A DNA stretch of 64,000 nucleotides from Candidatus Zestomicrobium tamdykulense (lineage in GTDB: Archaea; Thermoproteota; Thermoprotei_A; Sulfolobales; NBVN01). The notes under the pieces were generated by a model. The model had not been told where the DNA came from and ran no database searches. It worked only from the letters and a program-made list of their open reading frames with translations. A program made the translations under genes and the position numbers. This document shows positions 11,221 through 33,899 of the stretch, piece after piece; position 1 is the stretch's first letter; the number at the start of each line of letters is the position of its first letter. The stretch is from positions 21,358-85,357 of the forward strand of contig JAVVFV010000005.1 of assembly GCA_039889305.1 (NCBI GenBank), written 5' to 3'.

Positions 11221-13112
11221 CTCCAGAACTTCTCAACCTCTTCTTTATCGTACTCTTTCTGAGGGATTATAGCTTTAGTTGGACATACCTGAGCACACGC
11301 ACCACAACCAATACATAGTTCTGGGTCGATCCACGCTTTCTTATTACTTCTAGGCATTATTGCTGGGCAGACAAACCAGTCATAACAGATACCGCAACCA
11401 ATACACTTATCTTCTAAGACTACGTAAGGAACTATCTCGACACCAGCTCTCCTAATATCTCTAATAACCTCCAGCGCGCACCTCCTCCTAGCAATTATGA
11501 CTGCCGGTTCCATATTTTCTCTGACGTAACTTAATGCCTTCTTGGTGACCTCCCTAACAGTCTTGATATCAAAGGGATCTATAACCTCAACAAACCTAAC
11601 ACCAAGTCCTGAAACCACGTTCTCTATAGGTATGTAGCGTGTTCCCTCACCGTCCTTGCTTGAAGGGGTTGGCTGATGACCTGTCATGGCAGTTATCTCA
11701 TTATCTAGTATTATTACAATTAGTGGTTTCCTATGCCATACAGCGTTCACGAGTGGTGGTAAGCCTGCATGATAGAATGTGGAATCACCTATTATAGCTA
11801 TCACGTTATCGTCTGTGGTTATGCTGAGACCATATCCAACCCCTATACTACTCCCCATCTCAATTATTATGTCCTGCATCCTGTATGGTGGGTTATACCC
11901 TAGCGAGTAACATCCTATGTCTCCTGAAGCGATGTAAGGTATTTTTTCTTGATTAACTAGTCTCCTTAACTCAAAGAATAGCGGCCTGTAGGGGCATCCT
12001 GGACAGAATGTAGGTATTCTATTAGGCACGTTAACTACGGGTTGGTTAAGTGTTTGAGGAGCTGAGTAATTAAGTCCTAAGAATTTAGCTATAGCTTTCC
12101 TGACTCTCAAATGATTTAACTCAAACTCGTAACCTACTAGGTCCTTACCTCTAACTTCTGCCTCAATCCTAGAATCATGAAGTACTGACTTAACGTTAGT
12201 CTCTACTAGTGAGTCGAGCTCCTCAATAACAAGTATCCTGTCAACCTCCTCAGCAGCTTCTATGAGTAGCTTCTTAGGTAACGGTACAGGAGTCCCTATC
12301 TTAAGAACTTTGACTTTATCCCTAATCTTGAAGTAGTCGAGTGCTTCCATCACGTAACTATACGCACCACCTGAAGCTATGATTAATTCTTTTCCATCAC
12401 CTTCAATCCTATTAAACGGGACTTCATTAACTACCTCAGAGATCGCGTCCCACTTCTCAAGTAACCTAATCTTGTTTTTCCTGGCAATAGCAGGCACAAC
12501 AACAAACCTGTCTTCTTTATTAAATTTCCCCCTAACCCTTACTTCCGGTATAGGCCCTAACTCTACAACCCCCCTACTGTGACTCACTCTAGTAGTAGTA
12601 CGCAGTATTACTGGGTGCTTAAACCTTCTGCTGAATTCAAAAACATACTTAGTCATCTTTTTTGCTTCATCAGCCTCGAAAGGCTCGAAAACAGGTATGT
12701 ATGCGTGAACCCCATACCACCTGTTGTCTTGCTCATTCTGACTACTATGCATGCTGGGATCATCAGCCGTAACAATAACCAAAGCTCCCTCGACACCTGT
12801 ATAGGCGGAACTCATTAAGGGATCTGCAGCGACATTCATGCCTACATGCTTCATAGCGGTTAACGCGTTAATGCCTGCTAAGGAAGCACCGTAAGCTGCC
12901 TCGAAAGCTACTTTCTCATTCACGCTCCACTCCGCATGGATACCGACAACATCTTTCACTGAAACCAGAGCCTCTAGAATTTCTGATGATGGTGTGCCTG
13001 GATACGCAGCAGCAAACCCTAAACCACCCTCTAAAGCTCCGCGAGCTATCGCCTCATTACCTAATAGCAAGTACCTACCACTACTTACACCCACAAGAGA
13101 CTTAAAACTCAT
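11217..13112 (-). CDS. iorA: Indolepyruvate:ferredoxin oxidoreductase subunit alpha
   Basis: 631 aa. TPP-binding region GDIGCY...GDSTFYH. Two C-terminal ferredoxin motifs, CIGCGICYDWFVCP and CIGCGACAQVCP. Confidence 0.88.
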   Translation of the reverse strand: MSFKSLVGVSSGRYLLLGNEAIARGALEGGLGFAAAYPGTPSSEILEALVSVKDVVGIHAEWSVNEKVAFEAAYGASLAGINALTAMKHVGMNVAADPLMSSAYTGVEGALVIVTADDPSMHSSQNEQDNRWYGVHAYIPVFEPFEADEAKKMTKYVFEFSRRFKHPVILRTTTRVSHSRGVVELGPIPEVRVRGKFNKEDRFVVVPAIARKNKIRLLEKWDAISEVVNEVPFNRIEGDGKELIIASGGAYSYVMEALDYFKIRDKVKVLKIGTPVPLPKKLLIEAAEEVDRILVIEELDSLVETNVKSVLHDSRIEAEVRGKDLVGYEFELNHLRVRKAIAKFLGLNYSAPQTLNQPVVNVPNRIPTFCPGCPYRPLFFELRRLVNQEKIPYIASGDIGCYSLGYNPPYRMQDIIIEMGSSIGVGYGLSITTDDNVIAIIGDSTFYHAGLPPLVNAVWHRKPLIVIILDNEITAMTGHQPTPSSKDGEGTRYIPIENVVSGLGVRFVEVIDPFDIKTVREVTKKALSYVRENMEPAVIIARRRCALEVIRDIRRAGVEIVPYVVLEDKCIGCGICYDWFVCPAIMPRSNKKAWIDPELCIGCGACAQVCPTKAIIPQKEYDKEEVEKFWR

Positions 13113-22161: not shown

Positions 22162-22239
22162 TGGCGGGCCCGCCGGGATTTGAACCCGGGACCTCCGGCT
22201 TAGAAGGCCGGCGCTCTGTCCTAGCTGAGCTACGGGCCC
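22162..22239 (-). tRNA. tRNA-Arg(UCU), CCA encoded
   Basis: The reverse complement reads GGGCCCG-TA-GCTC..GAGC-G-CCGGC-CTTCTAA-GCCGG-AGGTC-CCGGG-TTCAAAT-CCCGG-CGGGCCC-G-CCA. Confidence 0.92.
22223..22239. repeat. attL core: direct repeat AGCTGAGCTACGGGCCC (nt 1-17 of tRNA-Arg)
   Basis: Identical 17-mer at 33883-33899. It extends to 21 bp with one mismatch. Confidence 0.8.
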
Positions 22240-22260
22240 GATTTTTTTACTATCCGAACA

Positions 22261-22270
22261 TTTATATATT
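22261..22270 (-). promoter_or_regulatory. Putative TATA box now serving tRNA-Arg, supplied by the integrated element
   Basis: The minus strand reads AATATATAAA, 22-31 nt upstream of tRNA nt 1 (22239). Confidence 0.4.
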
Positions 22271-22298
22271 TCTTCCTCTCCTGTTTTCTTGATGAGCC

Positions 22299-23299
22299 GT
22301 GGAGAGGTTTAGTTATAGACATGCACTTTCTAAAAGAGCTCTGAGGCTATATGAAGATTACGCAGAAGTTAGGGCTTGGTTTGATGAGCTAAAGGTTTTG
22401 AGAAGTGGGAGAACAGCCCATGACTATTTGGATATGCTTGCGGGTTTTGTTGAAAGTTCTGGAAAATATCCTAAAGATTTAGTTAGGCTATCTTCCAACG
22501 AAGTATATGAAGTTTTGAGGAGATGGGCTTTATCTGAGCTTCGCAAAGGTTCCTACACCACTGGAAGACTTTACGTTTTGTGGAATGCTGTCAAAAACTT
22601 CTTAAAATTTCATGGAATTGAAGTGAAAAATAAACCGCCTTTTAAGAGAACTGTAAAATACCTGGACAAGATCCCAACGAAAGAAGAGTTAAGGCAAATT
22701 TTAAATGCGGCTTCAAGCCTTTCAACAAAAATCGCTATTGAGTTGATGTGTTATGGAGGGTTGAGACCAGAGGATATTTGTGATTTAACCTACGCAAGCA
22801 TAAAAATGATTTTGAAAAAGGAGTAAGTCCATGTGCAGTATTTGTTCCGCAGACAAAAAGCGACAGCGTCTACGTCACTTTCATACCAGAAACAACCGTT
22901 GAGCTTATTCACCAATATTTTAAGTTTAGGGAAAGCAAGAGAGAAAAAATAGTTGCTAAAAGCCCTATAATAGCTAACCCAAGATATCAAGGAAAAGGAA
23001 TTAGGAGAAAAACACTAACAGCAAAGATAGAAAGTGCTATTTCTAAAAGCGGAATTCAATCGCAGTTAACCCTTGGAAATAAGGTTCAGAGAATTAGACC
23101 CTACAGTTTGAGGAAATATTTCAGAAGCAACTTAACGGGACACGCTCCAAGCGAGTACATTGAGGCTTGGCTCGGCCACACCTCCGGATTGGAGCACGTT
23201 TACAGCGGAACAAGAGATTTAGACCCCTCCACAATTGAAAGAATGCGTGAAGTTTACAAAAGGTGCGAACCTTTCCTTTGGCCACAGCCCAACCATTAG
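22299..23299 (+). pseudogene. Tyrosine recombinase/integrase, interrupted by a single -1 frameshift near 22800-22822
   Basis: The N-terminal ORF (22299-22826) ends after the Arg-box YGGLRPEDICDL. The continuation is open in the -1 frame from 22784 and carries LRKYFRS, AWLGH and catalytic ..HVYSG. The shift lies in the A-runs ATAAAAATGATTTTGAAAAAGG. Confidence 0.8.
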
Positions 23300-24474
23300 A
23301 CCAAAATTCTCTAGTTACTGAAGCAAAAATAGAAGCCCTAAAAAGCATAGCAAAAAGCCTACTCGGCATAGATTTGCTGGAAGTTAAAATCGCTAAAGAA
23401 AAGGATGTTGGAAGAGAATTAAGCAAGGATGAAGAATTGGAGCTTTACGAGAAGGAGCTGAAAAAGCTCAGGGAAGGAAAACACAACCCACAAAGAATAG
23501 TGCACGAAAAAGAGCTTGAAAAATACTTGGCGGAAGGATGGCAATTCGTAAGTGTACTGCCCTCACGCAAAATCCTAATTAAAAAGCACAATGAATGGGT
23601 AGAAAATAATAAACTCATTTCTTGGGCTGAAAAGTTGGGCATAAAACTAAATGCAAATGGGAAGCTTGATGAAGGGCAGCTGTTTCAATTGTTTGTTCTT
23701 GCCATTTTATGGAATAACAAACCGACTTATAGAGCTGAGATGGGGGAGAAAATATTCAGGGAGATAAAGAGCGAGTATACCCTTGATAACTTTCAAAGAG
23801 CAGCTCAAGATAACAATATGGAAAATAGGATTAGGGAGATCGCAGCTGAGATCATCCGTAATACGCAAGTCTACAAATTGTTAATGTTCATTGCCAATGA
23901 AACACTTAATGGAAAAAACATTTGGACAATGATCAAAGAAATGCTTGAATTCCCCGTTATTGGCAATGAAGAAGATGATCTGAGAAGGTTAAAAGGACTC
24001 TATAAACTCTTTAACCCTCCATGCCATGATCGCAAAGCATTCCTCACTGTGAAAACCTTCATTATTTTTAGGGAAATTCGAATACAGTTTAGAGAAGTTG
24101 GAAAATATCAGTATCACCCGGTGATTTGTTGTGTTCCTGATAGTAATGTAAGAGAAGCACTAAAAGGTCTCGGTATTCTGGGTGATGTTAAAAATGATTT
24201 AAATAGCATGATAATGGCAAGCCGACTAATGGCGGACGCATTTTGCACAGAAGAATACGAGCTATACGATCTTCCTCTATTCTTTTGGCATAAAGAAGAG
24301 GGCAAATACCCTTCAATTGGATTCAGTAGCACGCAGCCAACGAAAGGCAAATATGCTGGAGTTTGCCCAAAATGCAGGTCACCTCTGGTGTGGCGTAGAG
24401 CTAAACGCACAAACGAAATTTACAGGGGCTGCACTAACTTTCCACATTGCAGATGGAACGATAGAAGCTATTAG
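23263..24474 (+). CDS. Hypothetical protein with C-terminal topoisomerase-type C4 zinc finger; central region weakly HhH-GPD-like
   Basis: C-terminus CPKCRSPLVWRRAKRTNEIYRGCTNFPHCRW matches the zf-C4_Topoisom pattern. The central LFQLFVLAILWNNKPTY...CVPDSNVREALKGLGILG is reminiscent of EndoIII-like glycosylases. The start overlaps the integrase 3' end, so the true start is uncertain. Confidence 0.55.
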   Translation: MRTFPLATAQPLDQNSLVTEAKIEALKSIAKSLLGIDLLEVKIAKEKDVGRELSKDEELELYEKELKKLREGKHNPQRIVHEKELEKYLAEGWQFVSVLPSRKILIKKHNEWVENNKLISWAEKLGIKLNANGKLDEGQLFQLFVLAILWNNKPTYRAEMGEKIFREIKSEYTLDNFQRAAQDNNMENRIREIAAEIIRNTQVYKLLMFIANETLNGKNIWTMIKEMLEFPVIGNEEDDLRRLKGLYKLFNPPCHDRKAFLTVKTFIIFREIRIQFREVGKYQYHPVICCVPDSNVREALKGLGILGDVKNDLNSMIMASRLMADAFCTEEYELYDLPLFFWHKEEGKYPSIGFSSTQPTKGKYAGVCPKCRSPLVWRRAKRTNEIYRGCTNFPHCRWNDRSY

Positions 24475-24532
24475 AACGATCTACCTGCAAGTTCATGCTT
24501 CTGTTAGGAGACATAAAAAGAAAATGGATTTT

Positions 24533-25036
24533 CTATACACTTTGCTTGGTCTCCTTTAAAGCTTCGCTGATTTGGCGATGGAAGAAAATAAAGATGATAA
24601 TTGTTGCAGAAGCTGTGTAGCTCGCAACGAGCAGCATGTTCATCATGTTAAATGCACTTAGGACGATATAAGATGCTCCTGCAATGATGGCTGCTCCAAG
24701 GATGGAGTAGATGCTTGCGGTCTTCCAGGCTCCCCATTTACGTGCAAGCTTTAGCCAACTCTTCCATTTCAGAAAGTCTTTTAACCTCAATGGCTCTGAA
24801 AAATCAGTCTCTTCAACCGCCTTGGCCAGTTGCTCATCCATCTCTCGCTTTTGAACAGCCATAACCCTCGGTAACATAGCAATACATGCCATACCTCCCA
24901 CAACGAGAAGAATAAAGGCTAAGAGGGCTTGGCCGAGAAGGGCCAAAGCAAAAACAGAGAGCATAAGAAAACCCACAATAGCCCCTACGTAATGGATCTT
25001 ATCCCGTTTTCGATGAGCCTGCCTAATGGAAAGCAC
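24533..25036 (-). CDS. Four-TM membrane protein, unknown function
   Basis: Two hydrophobic hairpins separated by a charged loop (QKREMDEQLAKAVEETDF). GTG start. Confidence 0.55.
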   Translation of the reverse strand: MLSIRQAHRKRDKIHYVGAIVGFLMLSVFALALLGQALLAFILLVVGGMACIAMLPRVMAVQKREMDEQLAKAVEETDFSEPLRLKDFLKWKSWLKLARKWGAWKTASIYSILGAAIIAGASYIVLSAFNMMNMLLVASYTASATIIIFIFFHRQISEALKETKQSV

Positions 25037-25241
25037 TACTGCAAAGACGCATAGAACAGCCAGAAAGAGAAAGGCGGATCCATTGAATATACGCCATGTT
25101 CTTTACTTCATCTTATCTAACTATTATTGTTTTTATTAGCATTTATGGCTTAGTTTTTGGTATCTTTTTGCAGAACAACATATCCGTTACGGGCAGAGTC
25201 CAGCTAATGCGCAGCTACGTAGCAACCAGGTTCTAGGTCTA

Positions 25242-25640
25242 TCAAGAATGGCGAGTGCGCTTCTCCAGTTTGTCTCCAAGGTAGGCTCCTAGTAAGTAAC
25301 AGGGTAACGCCAAGAATGCTGAGCTATCTGCACTTAAACCGAACACATGCCTTAGGGCAATCACGGAGATCCCCCATAAAAAGAAGCCAATCCAGAAAAT
25401 GCCGCCGAGGATGAAGATAACTCGACGGGTAATCTGCCATCTTCGGGGAGAGGTCCAAACGAAACGTCGGAGAGCGTAAGTTGAACCTACGAGCAACAAC
25501 GCGATGGCTGAGAATTTGACAGCTGTTTGGAGAGGAACATGGCCAGTCATATACCCCACCCACGAAATTATGACACAGAAAGTTAGAGCGATTAGACTGT
25601 AGAACAGAATTCGAGCTTTCCAGTAATTAGGCTTTCCCAT
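25242..25640 (-). CDS. Four-TM membrane protein, unknown function
   Basis: 132 aa with four hydrophobic segments. It lies directly downstream of the Cys-rich paralog. Confidence 0.55.
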   Translation of the reverse strand: MGKPNYWKARILFYSLIALTFCVIISWVGYMTGHVPLQTAVKFSAIALLLVGSTYALRRFVWTSPRRWQITRRVIFILGGIFWIGFFLWGISVIALRHVFGLSADSSAFLALPCYLLGAYLGDKLEKRTRHS

Positions 25641-25752
25641 CTTACCCTCACCTATTGTTTAAGTAAAAAAATAAAAAGGTTATGTGCATGGTTCAGACAT
25701 AGCAACTTAAGCCCACCCTCTCAGAGGTTGCAGTAGCATGTCTAAAAGGTCG

Positions 25753-26526
25753 TTACCCGCCACAACTGAGATAGCACACTATGTCACAAAAGTACCCCCA
25801 ATAGTCCCATCCGTAAGTTAACAGGTATAAACAAGCTACCAATAAACCACCGTAAGTTACAACGCCGCCAGCAAGGCATGCCGCTACTATCAACCCATAA
25901 GCACCCCAACAAGCGATATGACAGAAAAGATTACACCAGAAGTCGTCCATCAAGACTGCGGAGCTTTTGAGGATTTCTCTATCATATTCTTGTAGTTGTT
26001 TTCCTACCAGCCTAGACAGATATTTGGCTTCTTTCTCCATAGTGTAGTAGCCTTCTGCAAGTTGCATCAGCGTTTCGTCTCCGCTCTTCTCGTAGACCTT
26101 ACCTACCTCTTTGGCGACTTTGCCTAAGACGGCGTATAGTTGCGATAAAGTAACGGAAGAATTAAACTCGACAAACTCTAGTGATACGAGTTCAGATTTG
26201 CCTGCTGGCGCATAATTCATTACTGTGAAAGAGTGATTGTAGAATTCTGAGTTTTGTGGCGTAAGCGTTGTTAATAGGGTTAGGTTATATTCACGTTGCA
26301 CTATGTAGCTTAGGCTGTAGAATTGTATGGACGTTTTTTCTGCGGCGATTTCTGTGCAAACGAAGCTGGCTGTTCTGTTAATTTCATCTGTAAGTTCGTT
26401 ATAACTCCAAAGTAAAGTTTGGGTGACTGTCACTTCGTAGGCATCATCATCTACTTCATACGTTATCAGCGTTACTGTTTTGTTTTCGTTCTGTTCTATT
26501 GTTGTGGCTGTGATATTTGATGGCAT
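25753..26526 (-). CDS. Paralog of the sequon-rich domain of 26731-28137, with an 8-Cys hydrophobic C-terminal tail
   Basis: It aligns by eye to aa 200-385 of the larger protein (TVTLITYEVDD..YEVTVTQTLLW, QFYSLSYIV, FNSSVTLSQLY..LGKVAKE). The tail is FWCNLFCHIACWG...FCDIVCYLSCGG. Confidence 0.7.
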   Translation of the reverse strand: MPSNITATTIEQNENKTVTLITYEVDDDAYEVTVTQTLLWSYNELTDEINRTASFVCTEIAAEKTSIQFYSLSYIVQREYNLTLLTTLTPQNSEFYNHSFTVMNYAPAGKSELVSLEFVEFNSSVTLSQLYAVLGKVAKEVGKVYEKSGDETLMQLAEGYYTMEKEAKYLSRLVGKQLQEYDREILKSSAVLMDDFWCNLFCHIACWGAYGLIVAACLAGGVVTYGGLLVACLYLLTYGWDYWGYFCDIVCYLSCGG

Positions 26527-26561
26527 GTTAATGTTTGGGTATACCCAAAGATGTAACTCTA

Positions 26562-26723
26562 TTAAGTTTGTGTCGTTCTCTCTCGTATCAGCATAATTAT
26601 GCCAACAATAGCCATAAGTGCAAACAGAACTAGACCTAATGTTCTTTGGAATATTAGGTTTATCAACGCTCCAGAAATACCGAGGACAACCATAGACAAA
26701 GCAAGCCCTTTTGACTTCTGCAT
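26562..26723 (-). CDS. Small two-TM membrane protein (53 aa; the track ORF extends to 26786)
   Basis: MQKSKGLALSMVVLGISGALINLIF..LGLVLFALMAIVGIIMLI. The internal ATG avoids a 56-nt overlap with the upstream gene. Confidence 0.45.
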   Translation of the reverse strand: MQKSKGLALSMVVLGISGALINLIFQRTLGLVLFALMAIVGIIMLIRERTTQT

Positions 26724-26730
26724 CTGTTGC

Positions 26731-28137
26731 TTACCCCATTGGGCAGTCAATCCAACCCATAAATTCAGCGCACATGCAACAGGCATAGACGTGAGAAGCG
26801 AGACTTATTATACACGCCGAACAAGGTATTGTTATACAACCAATGCACCACCAGATAGTAAATATGGTTGCGCATGCAACAGCACACGCAGCACATGTAG
26901 CGCATAAAGGCACGGATAGATATGTTGTAAGTATCAAGCCTACGCAGAAGAAACAATCCCATATGTTGCCGCCATCTGCCAATAGTACAGAGCACTGGAT
27001 AATTTTTTTGTCATATACTTCGAGTTTTTCTTTTACTATTTTGGACAAGTGCTTAGTTTCGTCTCCTATGATGTAGTAATTTTGTGCAAATTGTCTAAGT
27101 GTTTTATCTTCGCTTTTTCCATAGGCTTTCCCCAACTCCTTGGCAACTTTACCCAACGCGAAATAGAGCTGTGATAAAGTAACTGAAGAATTAAATTCAG
27201 CAAACTCTAATGATATTAATTCAGACTTGTGTGCAGGTACATAGTCAATGATTGTGAATGAACTATTGAATGTTATAGAATTTAATTGCGTGAGCGTTGT
27301 GTGTATGGTTAAGTTGTATTCCTCATGATGAACAATGTAGCTTAGGCTGTAGAATTGTAGGGATATGTCTTCCGCCGCTATCTCTGTTGAGATGAACTTA
27401 GCTGTTCTGTTGGTTTTAGTGCTTGCCTCGTTATAATTCCACAGCAAAGTTTGGGTGACGAGCACCTCATAAGTTGTATCATTGGCTTCGTATGTTACAA
27501 GCGTTACCGTGCGTACTTCATCCTGCTCAAGCGTTGTAACCGCAATGTTTAAGGGTGTATTAGTGCTCGGAAGTTCTTGGTCTTGAGAACAGGATTGACA
27601 AACACAAGATGAGCCACTGGTTTGATATAGAAGTATAGGCTCTATGTTCGCCGATATATGTTTGCCAACAACGTTCACCGTAACATAGTGATAAGTGGTG
27701 TATATTGGGTAGCCTGCTTTTATCCATGCGGTTATTCCGCCGAGCATGTTGTAGACTTTTGTGAAGCCGTTGCTGGCGAGGATTTGGCATGCAATTTGGC
27801 TTCTTGAACCAGCCTTACAGTAAACTATTATTGGATCGTTTATATGCTCTTGCAGTTCGCTTATTCTATCTTCAAGCTCGTAAACTGGTACAAGAACAGC
27901 GTCATATAAATGCCCGAGATTGTATTCGCTCTGGTTTCTAACATCCAAAACAAGGCTTACTGTGCCTTTCTTTATCATTTTGTAAGCTGCATCAACGCTT
28001 ACGTCCTCATAAGCTCCAGCCCAAGACGCTTCAGCAAAAGCCTCAGGCACTGCAACAAAAGCAAGCAACAACACAGCCACAAGACCAACAGCAATCAACC
28101 TCTGACCACGCATCTCCAAAACAGAATAGGCCTTCAC
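26731..28137 (-). CDS. Secreted rhodanese-domain protein fused to a sequon-rich domain and a 15-Cys hydrophobic C-terminal tail
   Basis: Signal peptide RLIAVGLVAVLLLAFVAVPEAFA. Rhodanese region LVLDVRNQSEY..IIVYCKAGSRS..GGITAW. Many N-x-S/T sequons. The tail is CATCAACAVACATIFTIWWCIGCITIPCSACII..ACCMCAEFMGWIDCPMG. Confidence 0.75.
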   Translation of the reverse strand: MKAYSVLEMRGQRLIAVGLVAVLLLAFVAVPEAFAEASWAGAYEDVSVDAAYKMIKKGTVSLVLDVRNQSEYNLGHLYDAVLVPVYELEDRISELQEHINDPIIVYCKAGSRSQIACQILASNGFTKVYNMLGGITAWIKAGYPIYTTYHYVTVNVVGKHISANIEPILLYQTSGSSCVCQSCSQDQELPSTNTPLNIAVTTLEQDEVRTVTLVTYEANDTTYEVLVTQTLLWNYNEASTKTNRTAKFISTEIAAEDISLQFYSLSYIVHHEEYNLTIHTTLTQLNSITFNSSFTIIDYVPAHKSELISLEFAEFNSSVTLSQLYFALGKVAKELGKAYGKSEDKTLRQFAQNYYIIGDETKHLSKIVKEKLEVYDKKIIQCSVLLADGGNIWDCFFCVGLILTTYLSVPLCATCAACAVACATIFTIWWCIGCITIPCSACIISLASHVYACCMCAEFMGWIDCPMG

Positions 28138-28319
28138 CTATATACCTCCCTTAAATTCTGTTTTTTAGTATATAAAACTTTTGCAACTAATAATAAAACT
28201 CAATCCCAAGGCGAAACTTGCAACGTTAAAAATTTGCAATACCGCCTGTTCTGTTAGTAACGTTTAACCGAGAGGTTTAAATATTGCTGTCTTTCTGTTT
28301 TTCTGTTTGGGGGTGTGTT

Positions 28320-28760
28320 ATGGGAACTATAAGAAGTGAATATTCTATCGAGCAGTTTGAGGCTGCCCTGCAACGTTTTGCGCATCAGATTACTGACATG
28401 ATGCAGAGGATAGACAAGATGCACGTTAGTTCAGAAAAGATGGATGTCGACTTAGAATTCAGCTACGGCGTTAAAGGCGAGGTAATGAAGATATACGTGT
28501 CTTTTTACAAGAGGGATAAGCCGGACTCATGGGGAGAGTCGCTATCCTTCACAGTAGAGCCTAAAGACTACGTTGACAGCCCCCACATAACAAAAATCCA
28601 CTATGAAGGGGCAAACGACAAGCAGTACAGCGAGAAAATCCTAACATGGCTTAAAAGCCTCCTAGGCTCAGAAAAGCCTGCAGTATCCTTCTCGTTGAAG
28701 GATTTTTCAAAGAAGGTCAACAGGCGCCTTACAGACTACAAAGCTTTTTCGAAGGGTTAA
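28320..28760 (+). CDS. Hypothetical protein
   Basis: The ORF has protein-like composition and is first of three tightly spaced plus-strand genes. I prefer the start at ATG 28320. Confidence 0.5.
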   Translation: MGTIRSEYSIEQFEAALQRFAHQITDMMQRIDKMHVSSEKMDVDLEFSYGVKGEVMKIYVSFYKRDKPDSWGESLSFTVEPKDYVDSPHITKIHYEGANDKQYSEKILTWLKSLLGSEKPAVSFSLKDFSKKVNRRLTDYKAFSKG

Positions 28761-28762
28761 TC

Positions 28763-29173
28763 ATGGAATCCCTCGTAAGAATGTTTAGGGAATCCCTCTT
28801 CAAAGCATTTTATGATTGGCTTGAGAAGAATAAGACCGTTATAGGCGAGAAATGGTATGTTTATGCCTTCAACGAGGCTAAGAGGGCTGAGGATTTAGCC
28901 GACAACGCAGTAGGCATAATCGGCGCAGCCATGTGGATGTTCAACACGATGGCCAACTGCGGCGTAATGGCAGGTGTAGGCCCAAACGGATACAGCCTAC
29001 AATATCTGGAAAACACGAAAATCGACGAAGCCTCAACAAGAAGGCTCCTAACAATGATTGTGGCTTGCCTAAACCTTCAATACCTGCCCATTGAAGAGGC
29101 CAAAAAGCAAATCCCAATAATTAGCCGTGGCAAGTTTTCTCTGAAGCTTTTTGTTGAGGATAGGAAATCATAA
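28763..29173 (+). CDS. Hypothetical protein
   Basis: The ORF starts 2 nt after the previous stop. I recognise no motif. Confidence 0.5.
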   Translation: MESLVRMFRESLFKAFYDWLEKNKTVIGEKWYVYAFNEAKRAEDLADNAVGIIGAAMWMFNTMANCGVMAGVGPNGYSLQYLENTKIDEASTRRLLTMIVACLNLQYLPIEEAKKQIPIISRGKFSLKLFVEDRKS

Positions 29174-29208
29174 ATACCAGCTTGTGACATTGGGTTTATG
29201 GTGTTGGT

Positions 29209-29397
29209 ATGCCTAAGGGACCTGAATGGCTGACGGTTAGGCTGACTCCTGAGCTGATGGAGAAAATGAACTCTTATCTTCTGGCTGTGGCAAACAGAAT
29301 GGGACGCATACCCCAAGGGTTAAAAACCAGGATAGTGCATGAAGCCCTCGAGGAATGGTTCAAAAACCACGGCAGTGACCTCGAAAGGTTCACATAA
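29209..29397 (+). CDS. Ribbon-helix-helix (CopG/Arc-like) DNA-binding protein
   Basis: LTVRLTPELMEKMNSYL..., a beta-strand followed by two helices in 62 aa. Confidence 0.6.
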   Translation: MPKGPEWLTVRLTPELMEKMNSYLLAVANRMGRIPQGLKTRIVHEALEEWFKNHGSDLERFT

Positions 29398-29444
29398 CTT
29401 TTTCTATTTGGGGTGAAGCCCGTTGCCTAACAAACTCGGCTCAA

Positions 29445-29660
29445 TTATACTTTCCGCCTGTATAGCTCGCATTTCTCCGCAAAGTAGGGTGGAAGCTGGT
29501 CTGGCAGGACAGCGTTTCTGGGACACTTGTAACGTTTAACTATTTGCCCAGTGCTTGAGTCACCGCCCACCGTTTGTTCGAGAAGGCTGCAGCTCCAGCA
29601 TCGCGTCTTCTCTATTGGAACTTTAACTATGGTTTTAACCCTTCCCATGCAACCCCTCAA
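29445..29660 (-). CDS. Small Cys-containing (zinc-binding?) protein
   Basis: CWSC ... KCPRN ... KCELY spacing. It is the last gene of the minus-strand RadA/ParB operon. Confidence 0.4.
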   Translation of the reverse strand: MRGCMGRVKTIVKVPIEKTRCWSCSLLEQTVGGDSSTGQIVKRYKCPRNAVLPDQLPPYFAEKCELYRRKV

Positions 29661-29670
29661 CTTTTACATA

Positions 29671-29829
29671 TTAGGGGTGTGAAACCCGCTTCAGCCCTTC
29701 CTTAATTATTCTGTTGTATTTCTCGATGAGGGCTGAGTAGGCCTCCAAGTCCAAAGCCATCCGCTCAAGCTTCTCAGTGAGGGCCAAAAGCCTCCCATTA
29801 ACGTCCATGGTGTTGGCCCTTTTCAGCAT
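29671..29829 (-). CDS. Small helical ORF (52 aa), below the track cutoff
   Basis: My own translation is MLKRANTMDVNGRLLALTEKLERMALDLEAYSALIEKYNRIIKEGLKRVSHP. It fills the gap between the ParB-like gene and the Zn protein. Confidence 0.3.
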   Translation of the reverse strand: MLKRANTMDVNGRLLALTEKLERMALDLEAYSALIEKYNRIIKEGLKRVSHP

Positions 29830-29945
29830 TTAGGTGTTTTTCAACAGTTTCTACTGTGAGTTTTCCCCTTTCTGTGCGCCAAACTCCAGTTTTGTCTTCC
29901 ATGCCGAAAACGTCGGTTCTAGCGATGAAAATTTGGAAAAGCCTG

Positions 29946-31016
29946 TCAGCCAATGACTGGCTCTTCAAAACCTTTTTCTCCGGCCATTTTTATGGCTTTC
30001 TGGGCTACTTCCTCCCTCTCTTTTTCAGTTAGTTTTTCCCAGAAGACAACGAAGATTGATGCTTTAATGACGTCTTTCAAGTATTTGCCTTTGTATCTTG
30101 TGTATATGTAGTCGATTAGAATCATCGGGTAATGTTCTTTCAACTCCATGACTTTTTTGAAAGGCTCTTCAGGTGGCGCTGTTGCTTTCTCGGCTTCTTC
30201 TACAAGCAGAGGCTTTGGAAGATCAACAATTTTTTCAGCTAACTCTGGTTTTTGAGCCATCGCCTCAATAACCTTTCGAGCTTCTTTTGGCTTGAGTTTT
30301 TCACGTTTAACAACTTTAACGACTTTAACTGTTTTTTCTGGAGGTAAACCTTTCTCGATGGCTGCTTTGGCGAGTTGAGCCTCCCTTGTGGTTAGCTCTT
30401 CCTTCACAATAACCTCAGCTAATGCTTTCTGTTTTTCAGGCTCTATAACTGAGCCGATGATCTCGTAATGGAGGGGTGACAGCGCTGTCATCCCTGCTAA
30501 TAGCGTTTTTGCTTCCGGCGAAACCCTAACCCTACAAAGTATGCGTTCAACTTCTCTGTGGCTTATTCCAAACTTTTCAGCCATCTGGTCTATTCTCATC
30601 TTTTTAACTTCATGCAGATGGCGGAAGTATGCTGCCTCGCGAAGCGGGTCAACCGTTCCCCTCGCCTTGTTCTTCTTATAGTTTATTTCCAGCGCTTCTT
30701 CAGGTGTGCAGTCGGTTATTATGGCTCTTATCTGAGTCCAGCCGAGCTCCCTTGCGGCTCGCCAGCGTGAGTGCCCATCTACTATTTGGTATTTGGCTTG
30801 GCTCCACGGCTGCTTAGCCTTTATTTGGGCTATTTCTTCGGGTGTCAGCCTCCTTAGGAGGATTGGGTCTATCCTGTATAGACCTCTTGACTCCAGCCTT
30901 GTCATGTCTGTGCGCAGCATCATGTCCTCTTCTCTGCCTATGGCTGTGATGTTGCCTGGCAGTGGGATTATCTGCTCGAGGGGTATGTGCTCTATGCGCT
31001 GTTCACTCTGGGACAT
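29946..31016 (-). CDS. ParB/Srx-like N-terminal domain protein with HTH
   Basis: YQIVDGHSRWRAARELGWTQIRAII (ParB box) followed by HTH RIDQMAEKFGISHREVERIL. It overlaps the radA-like stop by 14 nt. Confidence 0.8.
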   Translation of the reverse strand: MSQSEQRIEHIPLEQIIPLPGNITAIGREEDMMLRTDMTRLESRGLYRIDPILLRRLTPEEIAQIKAKQPWSQAKYQIVDGHSRWRAARELGWTQIRAIITDCTPEEALEINYKKNKARGTVDPLREAAYFRHLHEVKKMRIDQMAEKFGISHREVERILCRVRVSPEAKTLLAGMTALSPLHYEIIGSVIEPEKQKALAEVIVKEELTTREAQLAKAAIEKGLPPEKTVKVVKVVKREKLKPKEARKVIEAMAQKPELAEKIVDLPKPLLVEEAEKATAPPEEPFKKVMELKEHYPMILIDYIYTRYKGKYLKDVIKASIFVVFWEKLTEKEREEVAQKAIKMAGEKGFEEPVIG

Positions 31017-31959
31017 CCTCTACACCAGCCTTTGTTATCATGAATTCCGTTGCGGCTCGTGGGAGGTAGCTGCTGGCTATGAGTGTTGCAACTCTCCTTG
31101 TTCCGGGTCCTATGGTTAGGTAGACGCGGTTTCCAATCATGTGGCTTACAACGTGTCCTCCAACAGGCGGGTTTAGAACCTCCGGCCTAACGTCATAGAC
31201 GTATCCAACGGGCGAGGCTAGAACCTGCTCGGTGGTTATGACTGCTATTCTGTAAACGCGTGCGTAGTTGAGGAGAAGCCTCAAACACCTGTTTATCAGC
31301 TGTTGTCGGGGGGCTAGAAGCTCCCTTCCAGGATATTCGGCTCTGAAGGGCGATACGAGGCTGTCAACGATGATTAGGCGGATGTTCCTTTCCCTTATGG
31401 GCTTGTGGGCGTTTTCAAGCAGGAATATCAAGTGCTCGCTGCTGTAGACTTTTGCATAATTCACCAGGGGGCATGTTTCTTCAGGGTTTAGGCCTCGAGC
31501 CTCAGCCATTTCATAGAGGCGTTTTGAGGAGAAGCTTCCCTCAGTGTCAAAGTATAATACGTTTCCGCCTAATCCGCCCTGCTCTGGCTTAAGCTGGGCT
31601 GTAACGCAGAGCATTAGGCAAAGCTGGGTTTTTCCAGAACCATACTGCCCCACAAGCTCTGTTATGGCCTGGGTTTCTATGCCTCCGCCTAAAAGATTGT
31701 CAAGGGCCTTGCTTCCAGTTGTGCACCTCAGCCTTCTTTTTGTCATTTCCCAGTGTTCGTAGGCTGTTATGAAACTGCAGCCTAAAGCCTGCCTTGCAGC
31801 CTCCACTATCCGTTGGGCAGCCTCAAGCTTTTCATAACCAGCCTTCTCCTTAACCTCCCTAGCTGGGGTGACAGCCAAAGTTTCAACGTTTGCAAAGCCG
31901 GCGTCCCTAAGCCTTTTGGCTATGGATTTGCCCACGCCAGGAATCTGCTCTAACTCCAT
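31003..31959 (-). CDS. radA: Full-length RadA-like recombinase (HhH N-domain + RecA core)
   Basis: LEQIPGVGKSIAKRLRDAGF (HhH), TTGSKALDNLLGGGIETQAITELVGQYGSGKTQL (Walker A), LIIVDS (Walker B), PVGGHVV. The ATG at 31959 lies 2 nt after the upstream stop. Confidence 0.85.
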   Translation of the reverse strand: MELEQIPGVGKSIAKRLRDAGFANVETLAVTPAREVKEKAGYEKLEAAQRIVEAARQALGCSFITAYEHWEMTKRRLRCTTGSKALDNLLGGGIETQAITELVGQYGSGKTQLCLMLCVTAQLKPEQGGLGGNVLYFDTEGSFSSKRLYEMAEARGLNPEETCPLVNYAKVYSSEHLIFLLENAHKPIRERNIRLIIVDSLVSPFRAEYPGRELLAPRQQLINRCLRLLLNYARVYRIAVITTEQVLASPVGYVYDVRPEVLNPPVGGHVVSHMIGNRVYLTIGPGTRRVATLIASSYLPRAATEFMITKAGVEDVPE

Positions 31960-31961
31960 CT

Positions 31962-32135
31962 CTAACCCTCCTTTGAGTGCGTGTGTTGGCCCCATTCAAT
32001 GTTGGTTTCTGCTATTTTGCTCCAGCAACGCCTGCAAATCGGAAGCCTATCACCCTTATAGACTATGAACACTTCTATGTCGGTGTTTCTGCATTTACCA
32101 TTCCATGGATTCCTACAACGCTCAATCCTAGACAT
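31962..32135 (-). CDS. Small Cys-rich zinc-finger-like protein (57 aa)
   Basis: MSRIERCRNPWNGKCRN...LPICRRCW. Only the C-terminal part of the 145-aa track ORF looks protein-like. Confidence 0.4.
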   Translation of the reverse strand: MSRIERCRNPWNGKCRNTDIEVFIVYKGDRLPICRRCWSKIAETNIEWGQHTHSKEG

Positions 32136-32382
32136 GTGTTCCACATCTCCTTGCTGTTTTCCAGCCGTTACCATGCAAACCAGCTTTGGCAAACTCTCTA
32201 ACAATTTCAATCTGATGATTTTGTAGAAACTCCTCAAGAGCTTCTTTCTGGCTTTGCCAATCATACTCATGGCTTGTAAATTTGCCCCAATAATGCGGAT
32301 GCCTATGCAGAAGCTGCAGGAGTAGTTTACGCTGGAGAACCGATAAGCCCTCAAGCTCCAAGCCCAAAGCTTCGGAGAGCAT
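32128..32382 (-). CDS. Small helical protein (84 aa), first gene of the RadA/ParB operon
   Basis: Protein-like composition (LSVLQRKLLLQLLHRHPHYWGKF..). Its stop overlaps the next start by 8 nt. Confidence 0.45.
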   Translation of the reverse strand: MLSEALGLELEGLSVLQRKLLLQLLHRHPHYWGKFTSHEYDWQSQKEALEEFLQNHQIEIVREFAKAGLHGNGWKTARRCGTHV

Positions 32383-32539
32383 AGGCGCTCAGCCTCCAAC
32401 CCAAAATTAGCGGTTTATGAAAGACGCTATAAAAAGGCAACGGCGAATCGACCTTTTTGAACAGTGGAGAGAGATAAGTTAAAGTGAAGTTTTGCACCTT
32501 ATTAATGCTGTATATTTAACCCTAAGGAGAAGCCGGAAA

Positions 32540-33205
32540 TTGAGTACACTTAAAAGGCAGGAAAGGAAAGCTGTGGTGACAGGAATCTCTGCAGCTGATG
32601 CAATAGACAGATATAGATATCGCCTTTCAAAGGAGTTGGGCTCAACAAAAGTTGAAGATAAAGGGCAATATGTACTTATGCATGAAAGGGTTCGTCTTCA
32701 AAACAAAGACTTTATGGACATTGTAGTTTATACAACAGACCGCATATACATATCTGCTTCTCCTTATGTGTCTGTGGAAAAATTTAACGAAGTAGCCACC
32801 AAAATTGTTCGTATAGCACAGGAAAGCGTGAAAATATTGGAGGAACTTCGTCCTATAACATTGTCAAGGGCTAAGAACATTTTGGAGTTCACTCTAAGAT
32901 TGAATGTTGAAGATGAATTTCAAAGAATGGTGGTAGTTATATTGGCTGACACAATAAATGAAATAGTTCTTAGGGAGGAAATGAAGGCAGCGGGGATTGA
33001 AGGGCCTCCTTTAGACGAGGGCATCCCTGAGAAAATAAAAAGGCTTAAAGATAAAGGAAAATTCATTCCTGAAGAAGAAGGAGTGAAAAATATTAGGGAG
33101 TTAAGAAATGGCATAGTCCACCGCGGAGACATCCCTGATAAAACTGAAGCTGCTAAGGCTCTAGAAATCACAAAAGCCGTGCTTAAGTGGTGCTTGAAAG
33201 AATGA
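32540..33205 (+). CDS. Protein with C-terminal HEPN-like Rx4H motif
   Basis: IRELRNGIVHRG sits in a helical C-terminal region. I prefer the TTG at 32540, preceded by AGGAG and a TATATTTAA box, but the track start at 32492 is possible. Confidence 0.55.
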   Translation: MSTLKRQERKAVVTGISAADAIDRYRYRLSKELGSTKVEDKGQYVLMHERVRLQNKDFMDIVVYTTDRIYISASPYVSVEKFNEVATKIVRIAQESVKILEELRPITLSRAKNILEFTLRLNVEDEFQRMVVVILADTINEIVLREEMKAAGIEGPPLDEGIPEKIKRLKDKGKFIPEEEGVKNIRELRNGIVHRGDIPDKTEAAKALEITKAVLKWCLKE

Positions 33206-33849
33206 CTGTGGAAAAAGTAAGCAAATATGAGGTAATAGTTGGTTCAGACGAGGCTGGAAAGGGCGAATGGCTAGGTCCATTGACGGTCGCAGCAGTAGCA
33301 CTTACGCCAGAGCAGAGCTCATATTTGGTTACACAAGGTGTGATGGATAGTAAGGAATTAAAAATTGATAGAATCATGGAGTTGTCTGGCATAATCAGGA
33401 AGGAATGTTTAAGCTATCATGTCATTGCCATAACCCCGAGAAAGTTTAACATGCTATTGAGGGAAGTGAAGAAGGAGGGAAAAAGTTTAAATGATATATT
33501 GGCTTGGGGACATGCTAAAGCAATATATGAAGTTTACCGGGAGCTGCAAAACAAGAAAATTTTGGGGAGAGTAAAGCTGGTGATTGATGAGTTTGACAAA
33601 TTAAAAACTGAGGAACGCTTAGGCAGGGTTCTTAAGTTAGCAAATTTTGACATAGAACAAAGACCACACGCAGAGGAGGAAACAGCAGTTGCAGCTGCAA
33701 GTATACTTGCTCGTGCAACAAGAGAATTTTGGATTGACGATGCTTCCAAGCGTTTACATTTAGATTTAAGAAAGCTTTCGGCGTCTGAAGCGTTAACCCT
33801 TAGGGATGCGGAATATTTTGCCAAAATAAGTTTTCTACATCCTATATGA
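33202..33849 (+). CDS. Type 2 RNase H-like protein, closest by eye to the RNase HIII catalytic domain (no N-terminal TBP-like domain)
   Basis: GSDEAGKGEWLGPLTVAAV, MDSKELK, ITPRKFN..LNDILAWGHAKAI, LVIDEFD, HAEEETAVAAASILARATREF. There is an ATGA start/stop overlap with the upstream gene. Confidence 0.7.
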   Translation: MTVEKVSKYEVIVGSDEAGKGEWLGPLTVAAVALTPEQSSYLVTQGVMDSKELKIDRIMELSGIIRKECLSYHVIAITPRKFNMLLREVKKEGKSLNDILAWGHAKAIYEVYRELQNKKILGRVKLVIDEFDKLKTEERLGRVLKLANFDIEQRPHAEEETAVAAASILARATREFWIDDASKRLHLDLRKLSASEALTLRDAEYFAKISFLHPI

Positions 33850-33882
33850 ATACCTATGTTCGAATAGGATTTTTCCTATCCA

Positions 33883-33899
33883 AGCTGAGCTACGGGCCC
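33883..33899. repeat. attR core: second copy of AGCTGAGCTACGGGCCC (orphan 5' fragment of tRNA-Arg)
   Basis: Identical to 22223-22239. Confidence 0.8.

Follow-up and report, generated by a model that had tools for sequence, protein, structure and literature searches.

What is a rhodanese doing at the head of a secreted protein with a cysteine-rich, hydrophobic C-terminal tail, and why is this protein encoded together with a row of small membrane proteins? The question is raised by a cluster of five consecutive minus-strand genes of Candidatus Zestomicrobium tamdykulense, located in a stretch of 64,000 nucleotides (nt) that was analysed as a whole and is called the window below (assembly GCA_039889305.1, contig JAVVFV010000005.1, positions 21,358-85,357, forward strand). 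A sequence-only reading of the window had recognised in this cluster the organisational logic of toxin/immunity loci, and comparative genomics bears this out: one constant head carries at least 71 classes of tails, the partner genes co-vary with the tails, and both orphan cassettes and recombination mosaics are found. Our answer, to which we assign a probability of about 0.6, is that archaea have in this cluster a polymorphic effector/immunity locus that can be compared with bacteriocin-immunity pairs and with Rhs, CdiA and MafB loci. All five open reading frames (ORFs) are present in the ORF list, and the features of the cluster are given below, where labels beginning with L denote comparison loci; labels beginning with P, used further on, denote family proteins.

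26731-28137, minus strand: main gene, coding for a secreted precursor of 468 amino acids (aa) with signal peptide, rhodanese domain, linker, mid domain and type-A tail (ORF and homologs)
28033-28137, minus strand: signal peptide region, aa 1-35 (sequence and Kyte-Doolittle scan; helix 6-28 in the AlphaFold2 (AF2) model)
27718-27996, minus strand: rhodanese domain, aa 48-140, with the loop C107-KAGSRS (PF00581, Foldseek and conservation)
26974-27555, minus strand: mid domain, aa 195-388, ending in the junction S-V-L-L-A-D388 and carrying conserved N-glycosylation sequons (AF2 and homologs)
26734-26973, minus strand: type-A variable tail, aa 389-468, the predicted effector module (composition; class common to L002)
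26562-26723, minus strand: small protein with two transmembrane (TM) segments, 53 aa from an internal Met (ORF of 74 aa: 26562-26786), candidate type-A immunity protein (two hydrophobic segments, homologs)
25753-26526, minus strand: orphan cassette, ORF of 257 aa (ORF; 54% identity to the main protein; about 90% nt identity to L084)
25945-26526, minus strand: mid domain of the 257-aa ORF, aa 1-194
25756-25944, minus strand: type-B tail of the 257-aa ORF, aa 195-257
25242-25640, minus strand: multi-pass membrane protein of 132 aa, candidate type-B immunity protein (homologs after type-B tails)
24533-25036, minus strand: multi-pass membrane protein of 167 aa accompanying the type-B cassette, role less clear (partial homologs in L084 and L088)

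The case for this answer begins with the homologs. We retrieved about 260 proteins with the mid domain and more than 228 relatives of the 468-aa protein; the mid domain alone accounts for 214 representatives (50% identity) among 1.84 billion cluster representatives. The family comes from Bathyarchaeia, Promethearchaeota/Thorarchaeota (Asgard), Sulfolobales, other Thermoproteota and Nezhaarchaeota, and its distribution is patchy, multi-copy and island-associated. The mid domain closes with the junction ...S-S-A-[IV]-L-x-D, whose Asp is found in 219 of 227 proteins, and a Cys-rich module stands directly after the junction in 207 of 215. It is here that homologs part ways. Under stricter clustering, at 40% identity, the tails form at least 71 clusters on one and the same head (clustering without composition correction merged nearly all tails and was discarded). 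The sequence-only reading had proposed just such a survey, and what emerged is the opposite of conserved core genes with invariant tails. Even among protein pairs having 80-100% identity in the mid domain, only 49% have alignable tails, and at 65-80% identity the fraction is only 10%; conversely, pairs with tail identity of at least 60% span mid-domain identities from 31 to 98%.

The chemistry of the tails is distinctive. Cys makes up 15.2% of their residues, Ala 11% and Gly 10%, whereas Lys+Arg amount to just 0.5%, compared with 6.8% in the heads. The number of cysteines is even in 82 of 95 tails. The spacing of consecutive cysteines peaks at i+4 (28% vs 9.6% for random) and at i+8 (12.8% vs 4.9%), which would line up the cysteines along one face of alpha-helices. 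Tails of this kind may be helical bundles or hairpins stapled by disulfides and, judging by their composition, the absence of basic residues is unlike what is seen in ordinary stop-transfer anchors. The Cys-rich hydrophobic tail of the 468-aa protein was correctly read from the sequence: there are 15 Cys within aa 381-468, and the tail proper, consisting of the 80 aa past Asp388, has 14 Cys and no Lys or Arg. The type-A class is present also in L002, and the related subclass A' of L003 has the same ends and a different core, whereas type-B tails have the pattern DFWC...CGG. Used by itself as a query against the database, the 80-aa type-A tail yielded no candidates in the word index. No Pfam or NCBIfam match in the tails corresponds to PGF-CTERM/archaeosortase-type sorting signals or to DsbD/CcdA-type thiol relay domains, and the tails are not conserved.

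The DNA mosaics reflect recombinational cassette swapping. The first of them is seen in the comparison with L001, a locus from a Bathyarchaeota metagenome-assembled genome (MAG). The window and L001 have 88-100% nt identity, mostly 93-100%, over a stretch that begins shortly before the start codon of the main gene and reaches to about its nt 820; past this point the identity falls to 65-76% up to the junction, and the tails are unalignable. L001 carries an extra gene for a 153-aa protein with four TM segments, and identity to the window is back to 90-100% exactly at the small 2-TM gene, a homolog of which (93% nt identity) L001 thus keeps without a type-A tail. The near-identical stretch, which comprises about 820 nt of the main gene and the region before it (L001 9986-11109 vs window 27029-28152; 95-100% identity), is shared by the Desulfurococcaceae window and a Bathyarchaeota-labelled MAG, and such identity across classes implies either a very recent transfer or a binning error of the L001 MAG.

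The second mosaic explains the origin of the 257-aa ORF. As had been suspected, this ORF is a paralog of aa 194-388 of the 468-aa protein, with a different tail of 63 aa containing 8 Cys; it has neither a signal peptide nor a rhodanese domain. In the AF2 model of its product (mean pLDDT, the predicted local distance difference test, 89.6) the tail is modelled as two helices with pLDDT of 60-78. The region of the window that spans the 257-aa ORF and the 132-aa gene (25242-26538) is 90% identical to L084, from a Thermoprotei MAG. In L084 the matching sequence makes up the 3' portion of a rhodanese gene of full length, and the 132-aa homolog comes next; the heads of the window and L084 genes are only 73% identical. 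Since the same sequence ends a full-length gene in L084, the 257-aa ORF can be regarded as a displaced former 3' end, that is, an orphan cassette. Similar 5'-truncated orphans made of mid domain and tail lie downstream of main genes in L004, L009, L092, L094, L105-L111, L117, L139 and L141. Immunity-like genes also occur without a tail, namely the 2-TM homolog of L001 and, in L143, a 132-aa homolog that stands alone beside an integrase fragment. A 94-nt direct repeat in the window (26291-26384 and 27323-27416, 77% identity) simply reflects that the 257-aa and 468-aa genes code for paralogous mid domains.

Tail classes and the genes directly downstream vary together, as the gene neighbourhoods reveal. 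In every type-B locus examined (L084, L085, L088, L117, L129, L139, L140, L141 and L142), the gene after the type-B tail codes for a homolog of the 132-aa protein (72-92% identity), and the orphan type-B copies of L139, L140 and L142 are no exception. Type-A tails are followed by 2-TM homologs both in the window and in L002, the A' subclass by a distinct 4-TM protein of 118-123 aa (L003, L116 and L128), and the type-C tail by a protein of 151-153 aa with four or five TM segments (L001 and L004). The 3' part of the 167-aa gene recurs downstream of the 132-aa homolog in L084 (92% nt identity) and L088 (79%), and is absent from L085. For 53 non-identical modules there are 265 pairs with the same tail, 87 of which agree in the class of the downstream protein; in 2000 shuffles this number averaged 17.9 and never exceeded 48. 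The statistic is inflated by shared ancestry among loci; for this reason we give the mosaics more weight. One apparent counter-example, a contig encoding P0007 on which a 132-aa homolog seemed to accompany a different tail, was rejected, as the homolog follows an orphan type-B fragment.

The small protein next to the type-A tail does have the two hydrophobic segments attributed to it from the sequence, but its 74-aa start, which overlaps the 3' end of the 468-aa gene, is probably wrong; the conserved L001 homolog begins at the internal Met, making a length of 53 aa more probable. The 132- and 167-aa proteins, initially described as 4-TM, are hydrophobic and multi-pass, and four segments are plausible, but a crude Kyte-Doolittle scan finds three hydrophobic segments in each. 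The 132-aa protein belongs to no Pfam, PADLOC or PHROG family, and for the five proteins of the cluster PADLOC and PHROGs gave nothing beyond one sub-threshold match per library. Several relatives of these genes deserve mention. In L002 (Sulfolobales MAG, 11304-12273), three tandem 2-TM paralogs, one of them an internally duplicated protein of 126 aa, lie downstream of the type-A main gene and resemble an immunity-gene array. In L017 (11789-12493, minus strand), an N-terminal ArsR-like segment that looks like a helix-turn-helix (HTH) is fused to a membrane domain related to the 132-aa family, and the gene adjoins a main gene. Similar HTH-plus-membrane proteins are encoded in L063 (6045-6884) and L130 (566-1609). 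All three may be tail-sensing regulators.

In contrast to the tails, the head is constant. A protein with 100% identity to the 468-aa product has been deposited as 'rhodanese-like domain-containing protein' from Desulfurococcaceae archaeon TW002. Its domains agree with what had been deduced from the sequence: a Sec-type signal peptide with a hydrophobic core at aa 14-32 and an AFA↓E cleavage-type motif, a single rhodanese domain (Pfam match to aa 48-140, E=2.4e-18) with the intact loop CKAGSRS, and a sequon-rich domain with five N-x-S/T sequons within aa 195-388, four of which are kept in 87-103 of about 120 homologs. The AF2 model has a mean pLDDT of 80.5, exceeding 90 in the head. Between the rhodanese and the mid domain it has a beta-hairpin and a linker with Cys; the mid domain itself consists of a long antiparallel sheet, two long helices and a final strand. 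The rhodanese has the expected fold, with the catalytic Cys in a C-x-x-G-x-R-[ST] loop; Foldseek relates it to solved rhodaneses with E ~1e-8 (0.8-1.6 Å root-mean-square deviation for the top matches), and NCBIfam PspE models match the family at about 1e-10 to 1e-13. Among aligned homologs, Cys107 is found in 116 of 118, Arg112 in 118 and Ser113 in 119, and the loop CKAGSRS is conserved.

The mid domain is a different matter. Although it is confidently modelled, a Foldseek search of PDB and BFVD with a model of mid domain plus tail gave nothing at E<=1e-3, and the full-length model matched rhodaneses only. The weak top matches (START, Osh4, coproporphyrinogen oxidase and porins) were set aside in view of TM-scores of about 0.2. 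Likewise, there was no Pfam match and no PDB sequence match to a natural protein; the PDB profile search returned only de novo designed helical proteins.

How might such a locus work? We propose that the 468-aa protein would be exported via Sec and N-glycosylated, with the head, formed by the rhodanese and the mid domain, acting as a carrier or pro-domain. Everything after Asp388 would be the exchangeable effector: a hydrophobic helical segment free of Lys and Arg, with paired cysteines on one helix face and, possibly, disulfide staples between helices. The tail, perhaps after processing, might then insert into and damage the membrane of neighbouring cells that do not have the matching protector. 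The multi-pass proteins encoded downstream would provide cognate immunity by neutralising the tail within the membrane, with the 53/74-aa protein assigned to tail A and the 132-aa protein, perhaps together with the 167-aa protein, to tail B. According to this scheme, the 257-aa ORF would be the old 3' end, pushed downstream with its immunity gene when a new cassette of tail and immunity gene recombined into the main gene. The mid domain would have supplied the homology arm for the exchange and may in addition shield the hydrophobic tail. More speculatively, the extracellular rhodanese may give sulfane sulfur or oxidising equivalents for pairing the tail cysteines in anoxic, sulfidic habitats. 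Chemically, a persulfide reacting with a thiol offers a route to a disulfide. Extending these ideas, one could imagine an undiscovered major system of interference competition among anaerobic archaea (Bathyarchaeia, Asgard and Thermoproteota), based on disulfide-stapled helical membrane toxins without Lys or Arg, in which the mid domain would shield the tail until delivery and the attached rhodanese would serve as a foldase using sulfane sulfur (thiosulfate or polysulfide) as the oxidant where O2-dependent disulfide machinery is unavailable; in this full form we consider the idea doubtful.

Several observations weigh against an effector/immunity locus, in addition to the inflation of the co-variation statistic mentioned above. 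No toxin, pore-former or immunity family was detected by sequence or fold (Pfam, NCBIfam, Foldseek, PADLOC and PHROGs). The type-A tail is predicted by AF2 with low confidence (pLDDT <50), and mirror-symmetric placement of cysteines, as in a hairpin, is significant in only 12 of 95 tails, neither of the two window tails being among them; what the cysteines do show is helical periodicity and an even number. In many relatives, domains of extracellular type follow the Cys-rich module, which thus need not form the extreme C-terminus, the usual place in polymorphic toxins, nor be a terminal peptide that could be released as it stands. Finally, a tail so hydrophobic would probably be trapped in the membrane of the producer during Sec export, so that a delivery route (contact, vesicles or cleavage) must be assumed. 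In favour of such a locus, on the other hand, one relative, P0025, carries a Hint autoprocessing domain, and Hint is among the processing proteases of polymorphic toxins (PMC3482391).

The domains that follow the Cys-rich module bring up the strongest of the rival explanations, that of self/non-self recognition or kin discrimination. Here the tail and the small membrane protein would make up an allele-specific membrane complex, serving as an identity tag in cell contact, vesicle uptake or fusion without any intrinsic toxicity. Hypervariability, cassette swapping and co-variation of tail and partner are all expected equally under this explanation, and long relatives have extra domains of the extracellular binding type (PKD, CBM/MAM-like, beta-sandwich). 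The domains found after the Cys-rich module are PKD, CBM/MAM-like, PPC or a beta-rich domain of about 130 aa, which in several long members is present in one or two copies and ends in ...GYDSG.SV.L.[IL]D.V.V.P. (long members with added domains include P0087, P0098, P0101, P0117, P0176 and P0180 besides P0025). VARTIG, an archaeal hypervariable module of unknown role (PMC8416519), offers a precedent. However, the variable part of our family is the most hydrophobic segment, membrane-embedded in appearance, and not an exposed domain. Partner genes kept without a tail, as in L001 and L143, fit protection from an external agent better than they fit an identity pair, and toxin loci typically have orphan cassettes that lack a signal peptide. 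We therefore hold recognition to be unlikely.

Could the locus instead encode a surface-anchored extracellular sulfurtransferase, with the tail as an anchor or sulfur relay, the downstream proteins as accessory subunits and the variation as a result of drift or of evasion of viruses using the complex as a receptor? The strict conservation of the rhodanese active site speaks in favor of this, and so do the sulfidic habitats of the host lineages and the example of E. coli YgaP, a membrane-bound rhodanese (structures of its rhodanese domain: 2mrm and 5hbo). Moreover, related secreted rhodanese modules occur alone or on other extracellular domains. In Promethearchaeum syntrophicum MK-D1 (Asgard), the signal peptide and rhodanese form a stand-alone secreted protein of 153 aa (L024, 9986-10447), whereas in a Bathyarchaeota genome (L026, 10016-11119; 367 aa in total) they are fused to a different C-terminal region of about 230 aa that, judged by eye, resembles a beta-helix with dockerin-like repeats. 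Both modules are 43-53% identical to that of the family, and their occurrence alone or on another C-terminal region makes the rhodanese module appear a general extracellular building block that the family recruited. Nevertheless, conservation would be expected of an anchor or relay, whereas one head carries at least 71 unrelated tail classes; the tails have no Lys/Arg topology signals and match no family of DsbD/CcdA type. Orphan truncated cassettes and recombination mosaics would have no rationale in a metabolic complex, and the patchy, multi-copy, island-associated distribution fits it poorly. Taken together, these points make a sulfurtransferase quite improbable.

The surroundings of the cluster bear on its mobility. 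On one side it is flanked by a tRNA-Arg(TCT) gene and a split integrase (22162-23299), and on the other by a ParB-like gene and then RadA. Behind the tRNA gene, which is on the minus strand, come the two ORFs (22299-22826 and 23108-23299) of a disrupted tyrosine-integrase gene and a gene whose 403-aa product has a C4 zinc ribbon of topoisomerase type; the whole region 22162-24474 has the appearance of an integrated element's decayed end that borders on the cassette cluster. On the opposite side (29946-31995), there is an overlap between the ParB-like gene and the end of the RadA gene, which is a genuine one (match to Pfam Rad51, E=6e-67). Orphan tail-B cassettes are located a few kb downstream of radA also in two metagenomic relatives, L140 (701-6393) and L142 (1028-6393), suggesting that the radA-proximal position is a conserved chromosomal hot spot. 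Further along the window, at 33876-33899, there is a 24-nt copy of the 5' end of tRNA-Arg (22 of 24 positions identical) at a distance of 11.66 kb from the intact gene, a fragment that neither Rfam nor ARAGORN calls as a tRNA gene. The copy resembled an attachment (att) site, but the genes for RadA and RNase HII separate it from the intact tRNA, and the notion that 22240-33899 is one element was dropped. In its behaviour the locus is more like a variable island or hot spot than a portion of a single defined element, and this setting, with a broken integrase beside the window cluster and integrases beside relatives, also speaks for an effector/immunity locus. Cargo of a mobile element that serves the maintenance of the element (addiction or superinfection exclusion) and not cell competition is the least probable explanation of all: the tRNA-Arg, split integrase and ParB-like gene around the window cluster, the integrases adjoining relatives in L085 and L143 and the very high identity across classes are in line with it, but IMG/VR viral contigs gave rhodanese-only matches and no further relative, PHROGs gave no matches, several loci (L001, L084) are surrounded by housekeeping genes and have no genes of an element close by, the RadA-proximal synteny of L140 and L142 suggests a chromosomal hot spot, and secretion of a large protein is at odds with an intracellular addiction module.

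An archaeal effector/immunity locus of this kind would be of interest in several respects. Hardly anything is known about competition among Bathyarchaeia, Asgard archaea and anaerobic Thermoproteota, and the family presents a concrete and widespread candidate system with a testable architecture. Its tails, in at least 71 classes, amount to a natural library of small, Cys-rich and putatively membrane-active peptides, each with a candidate protector. The mid domain is confidently predicted and at the same time has no structural match. The extracellular rhodanese fusion, strictly conserved and unexplained, may be a hint of oxidative folding that relies on sulfur where habitats are anoxic. Lastly, the displacement of orphan cassettes by recombination has in this cluster a clear archaeal example.

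How does the family compare with known systems? The archaeal precedent named at the outset was halocin C8, whose ProC8 precursor (Natrinema) likewise is a larger secreted protein that ends in a stretch of about 60-110 aa, hydrophobic and rich in Cys; a context of archaeal conflict is plausible for both. The precedent holds as an analogy, but not as homology. Neither window tail matches the halocin_C8_dom model TIGR04449, which together with PF22862 defines the halocin C8 family, even at E<=10; the best match, to one tail class from outside the window, has E=0.52 and 11.3 bits against a cutoff of 24, and for 103 members of the family the model is not in the best 25 of 30 NCBIfam families (E<=0.01). 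PF22862 (Hac8_like_N, the HalI immunity domain) likewise has no match to the mid domain at E<=10 and none among the 103 members. In ProC8 immunity resides in the N-terminus of the same precursor, whereas our family has separate downstream membrane proteins that co-vary with the tail. Halocin is exported by Tat, which is unlikely for the 468-aa protein with its Sec-type signal peptide because there is no twin-arginine motif, and the family does not have a halR/halT-type neighbourhood.

Similar in the proposed mode of action are the pore-forming colicins with their Cai/Cei-type immunity proteins and the ionophore CdiA-CT of E. coli EC93 with CdiI, in which a small multi-pass membrane protein as the source of immunity is an established pattern. 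The likeness would lie in a hydrophobic helical effector paired allele by allele with an adjacent protector of two to four TM segments. No relationship in sequence or fold to these proteins was detected, and the high and even number of cysteines together with the absence of Lys and Arg is not known from them. For the proposed foldase role, a precedent is provided by PspE, the periplasmic rhodanese of E. coli, which can take over the disulfide-forming function of DsbA (Chng et al. 2012, cited in PMC5403849). It too is an extracytoplasmic single-domain rhodanese with one catalytic Cys; unlike the rhodanese of our family, where a foldase role is purely conjectural, it is a free protein of 104 aa that is not fused to its substrate. 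VARTIG of Thermococcales has a hypervariable C-terminal Ig domain with a proposed role in conflict or self/non-self recognition and resembles the family in being a large secreted archaeal protein with a recombination-driven hypervariable C-terminus and variable downstream genes. It differs in being Ig-domain based, without a rhodanese or a Cys-rich hydrophobic tail, and in coming from other lineages (PMC8416519).

It had been claimed that no described system joins a rhodanese to such a tail, and a full-text literature search indeed found none, a listing in Makarova et al. 2019 (mBio, archaeal polymorphic toxins/halocins) being not excluded; the word 'rhodanese' does not occur in the survey of polymorphic toxins (PMC3482391). 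Classical polymorphic toxin systems are reported to be rare in archaea (Zhang et al. 2012, PMC3482391), and the family departs from them in that it has only a Sec signal peptide. Pfam and NCBIfam identify only the rhodanese, and no trafficking domains of type 5, 6 or 7 secretion systems (T5SS, T6SS, T7SS) or of RHS/TcdB, PVC or filamentous-haemagglutinin type. The head combines a rhodanese with a structurally unmatched domain, and the variable modules are Cys-rich hydrophobic helices, not enzymes. In its organisation, however, the family agrees with the bacterial polymorphic toxins (Rhs, CdiA/CdiI and MafB; PMC3482391): a constant N-terminus, a hypervariable C-terminal module past a conserved junction motif, a small partner gene directly downstream that co-varies with the tail, 5'-truncated orphan cassettes, recombinational replacement and horizontal spread. 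Overall, the comparison of sequences suggests that an undescribed archaeal family has a swappable-tail, toxin-immunity-like organisation that follows the logic known from bacterial polymorphic toxins.

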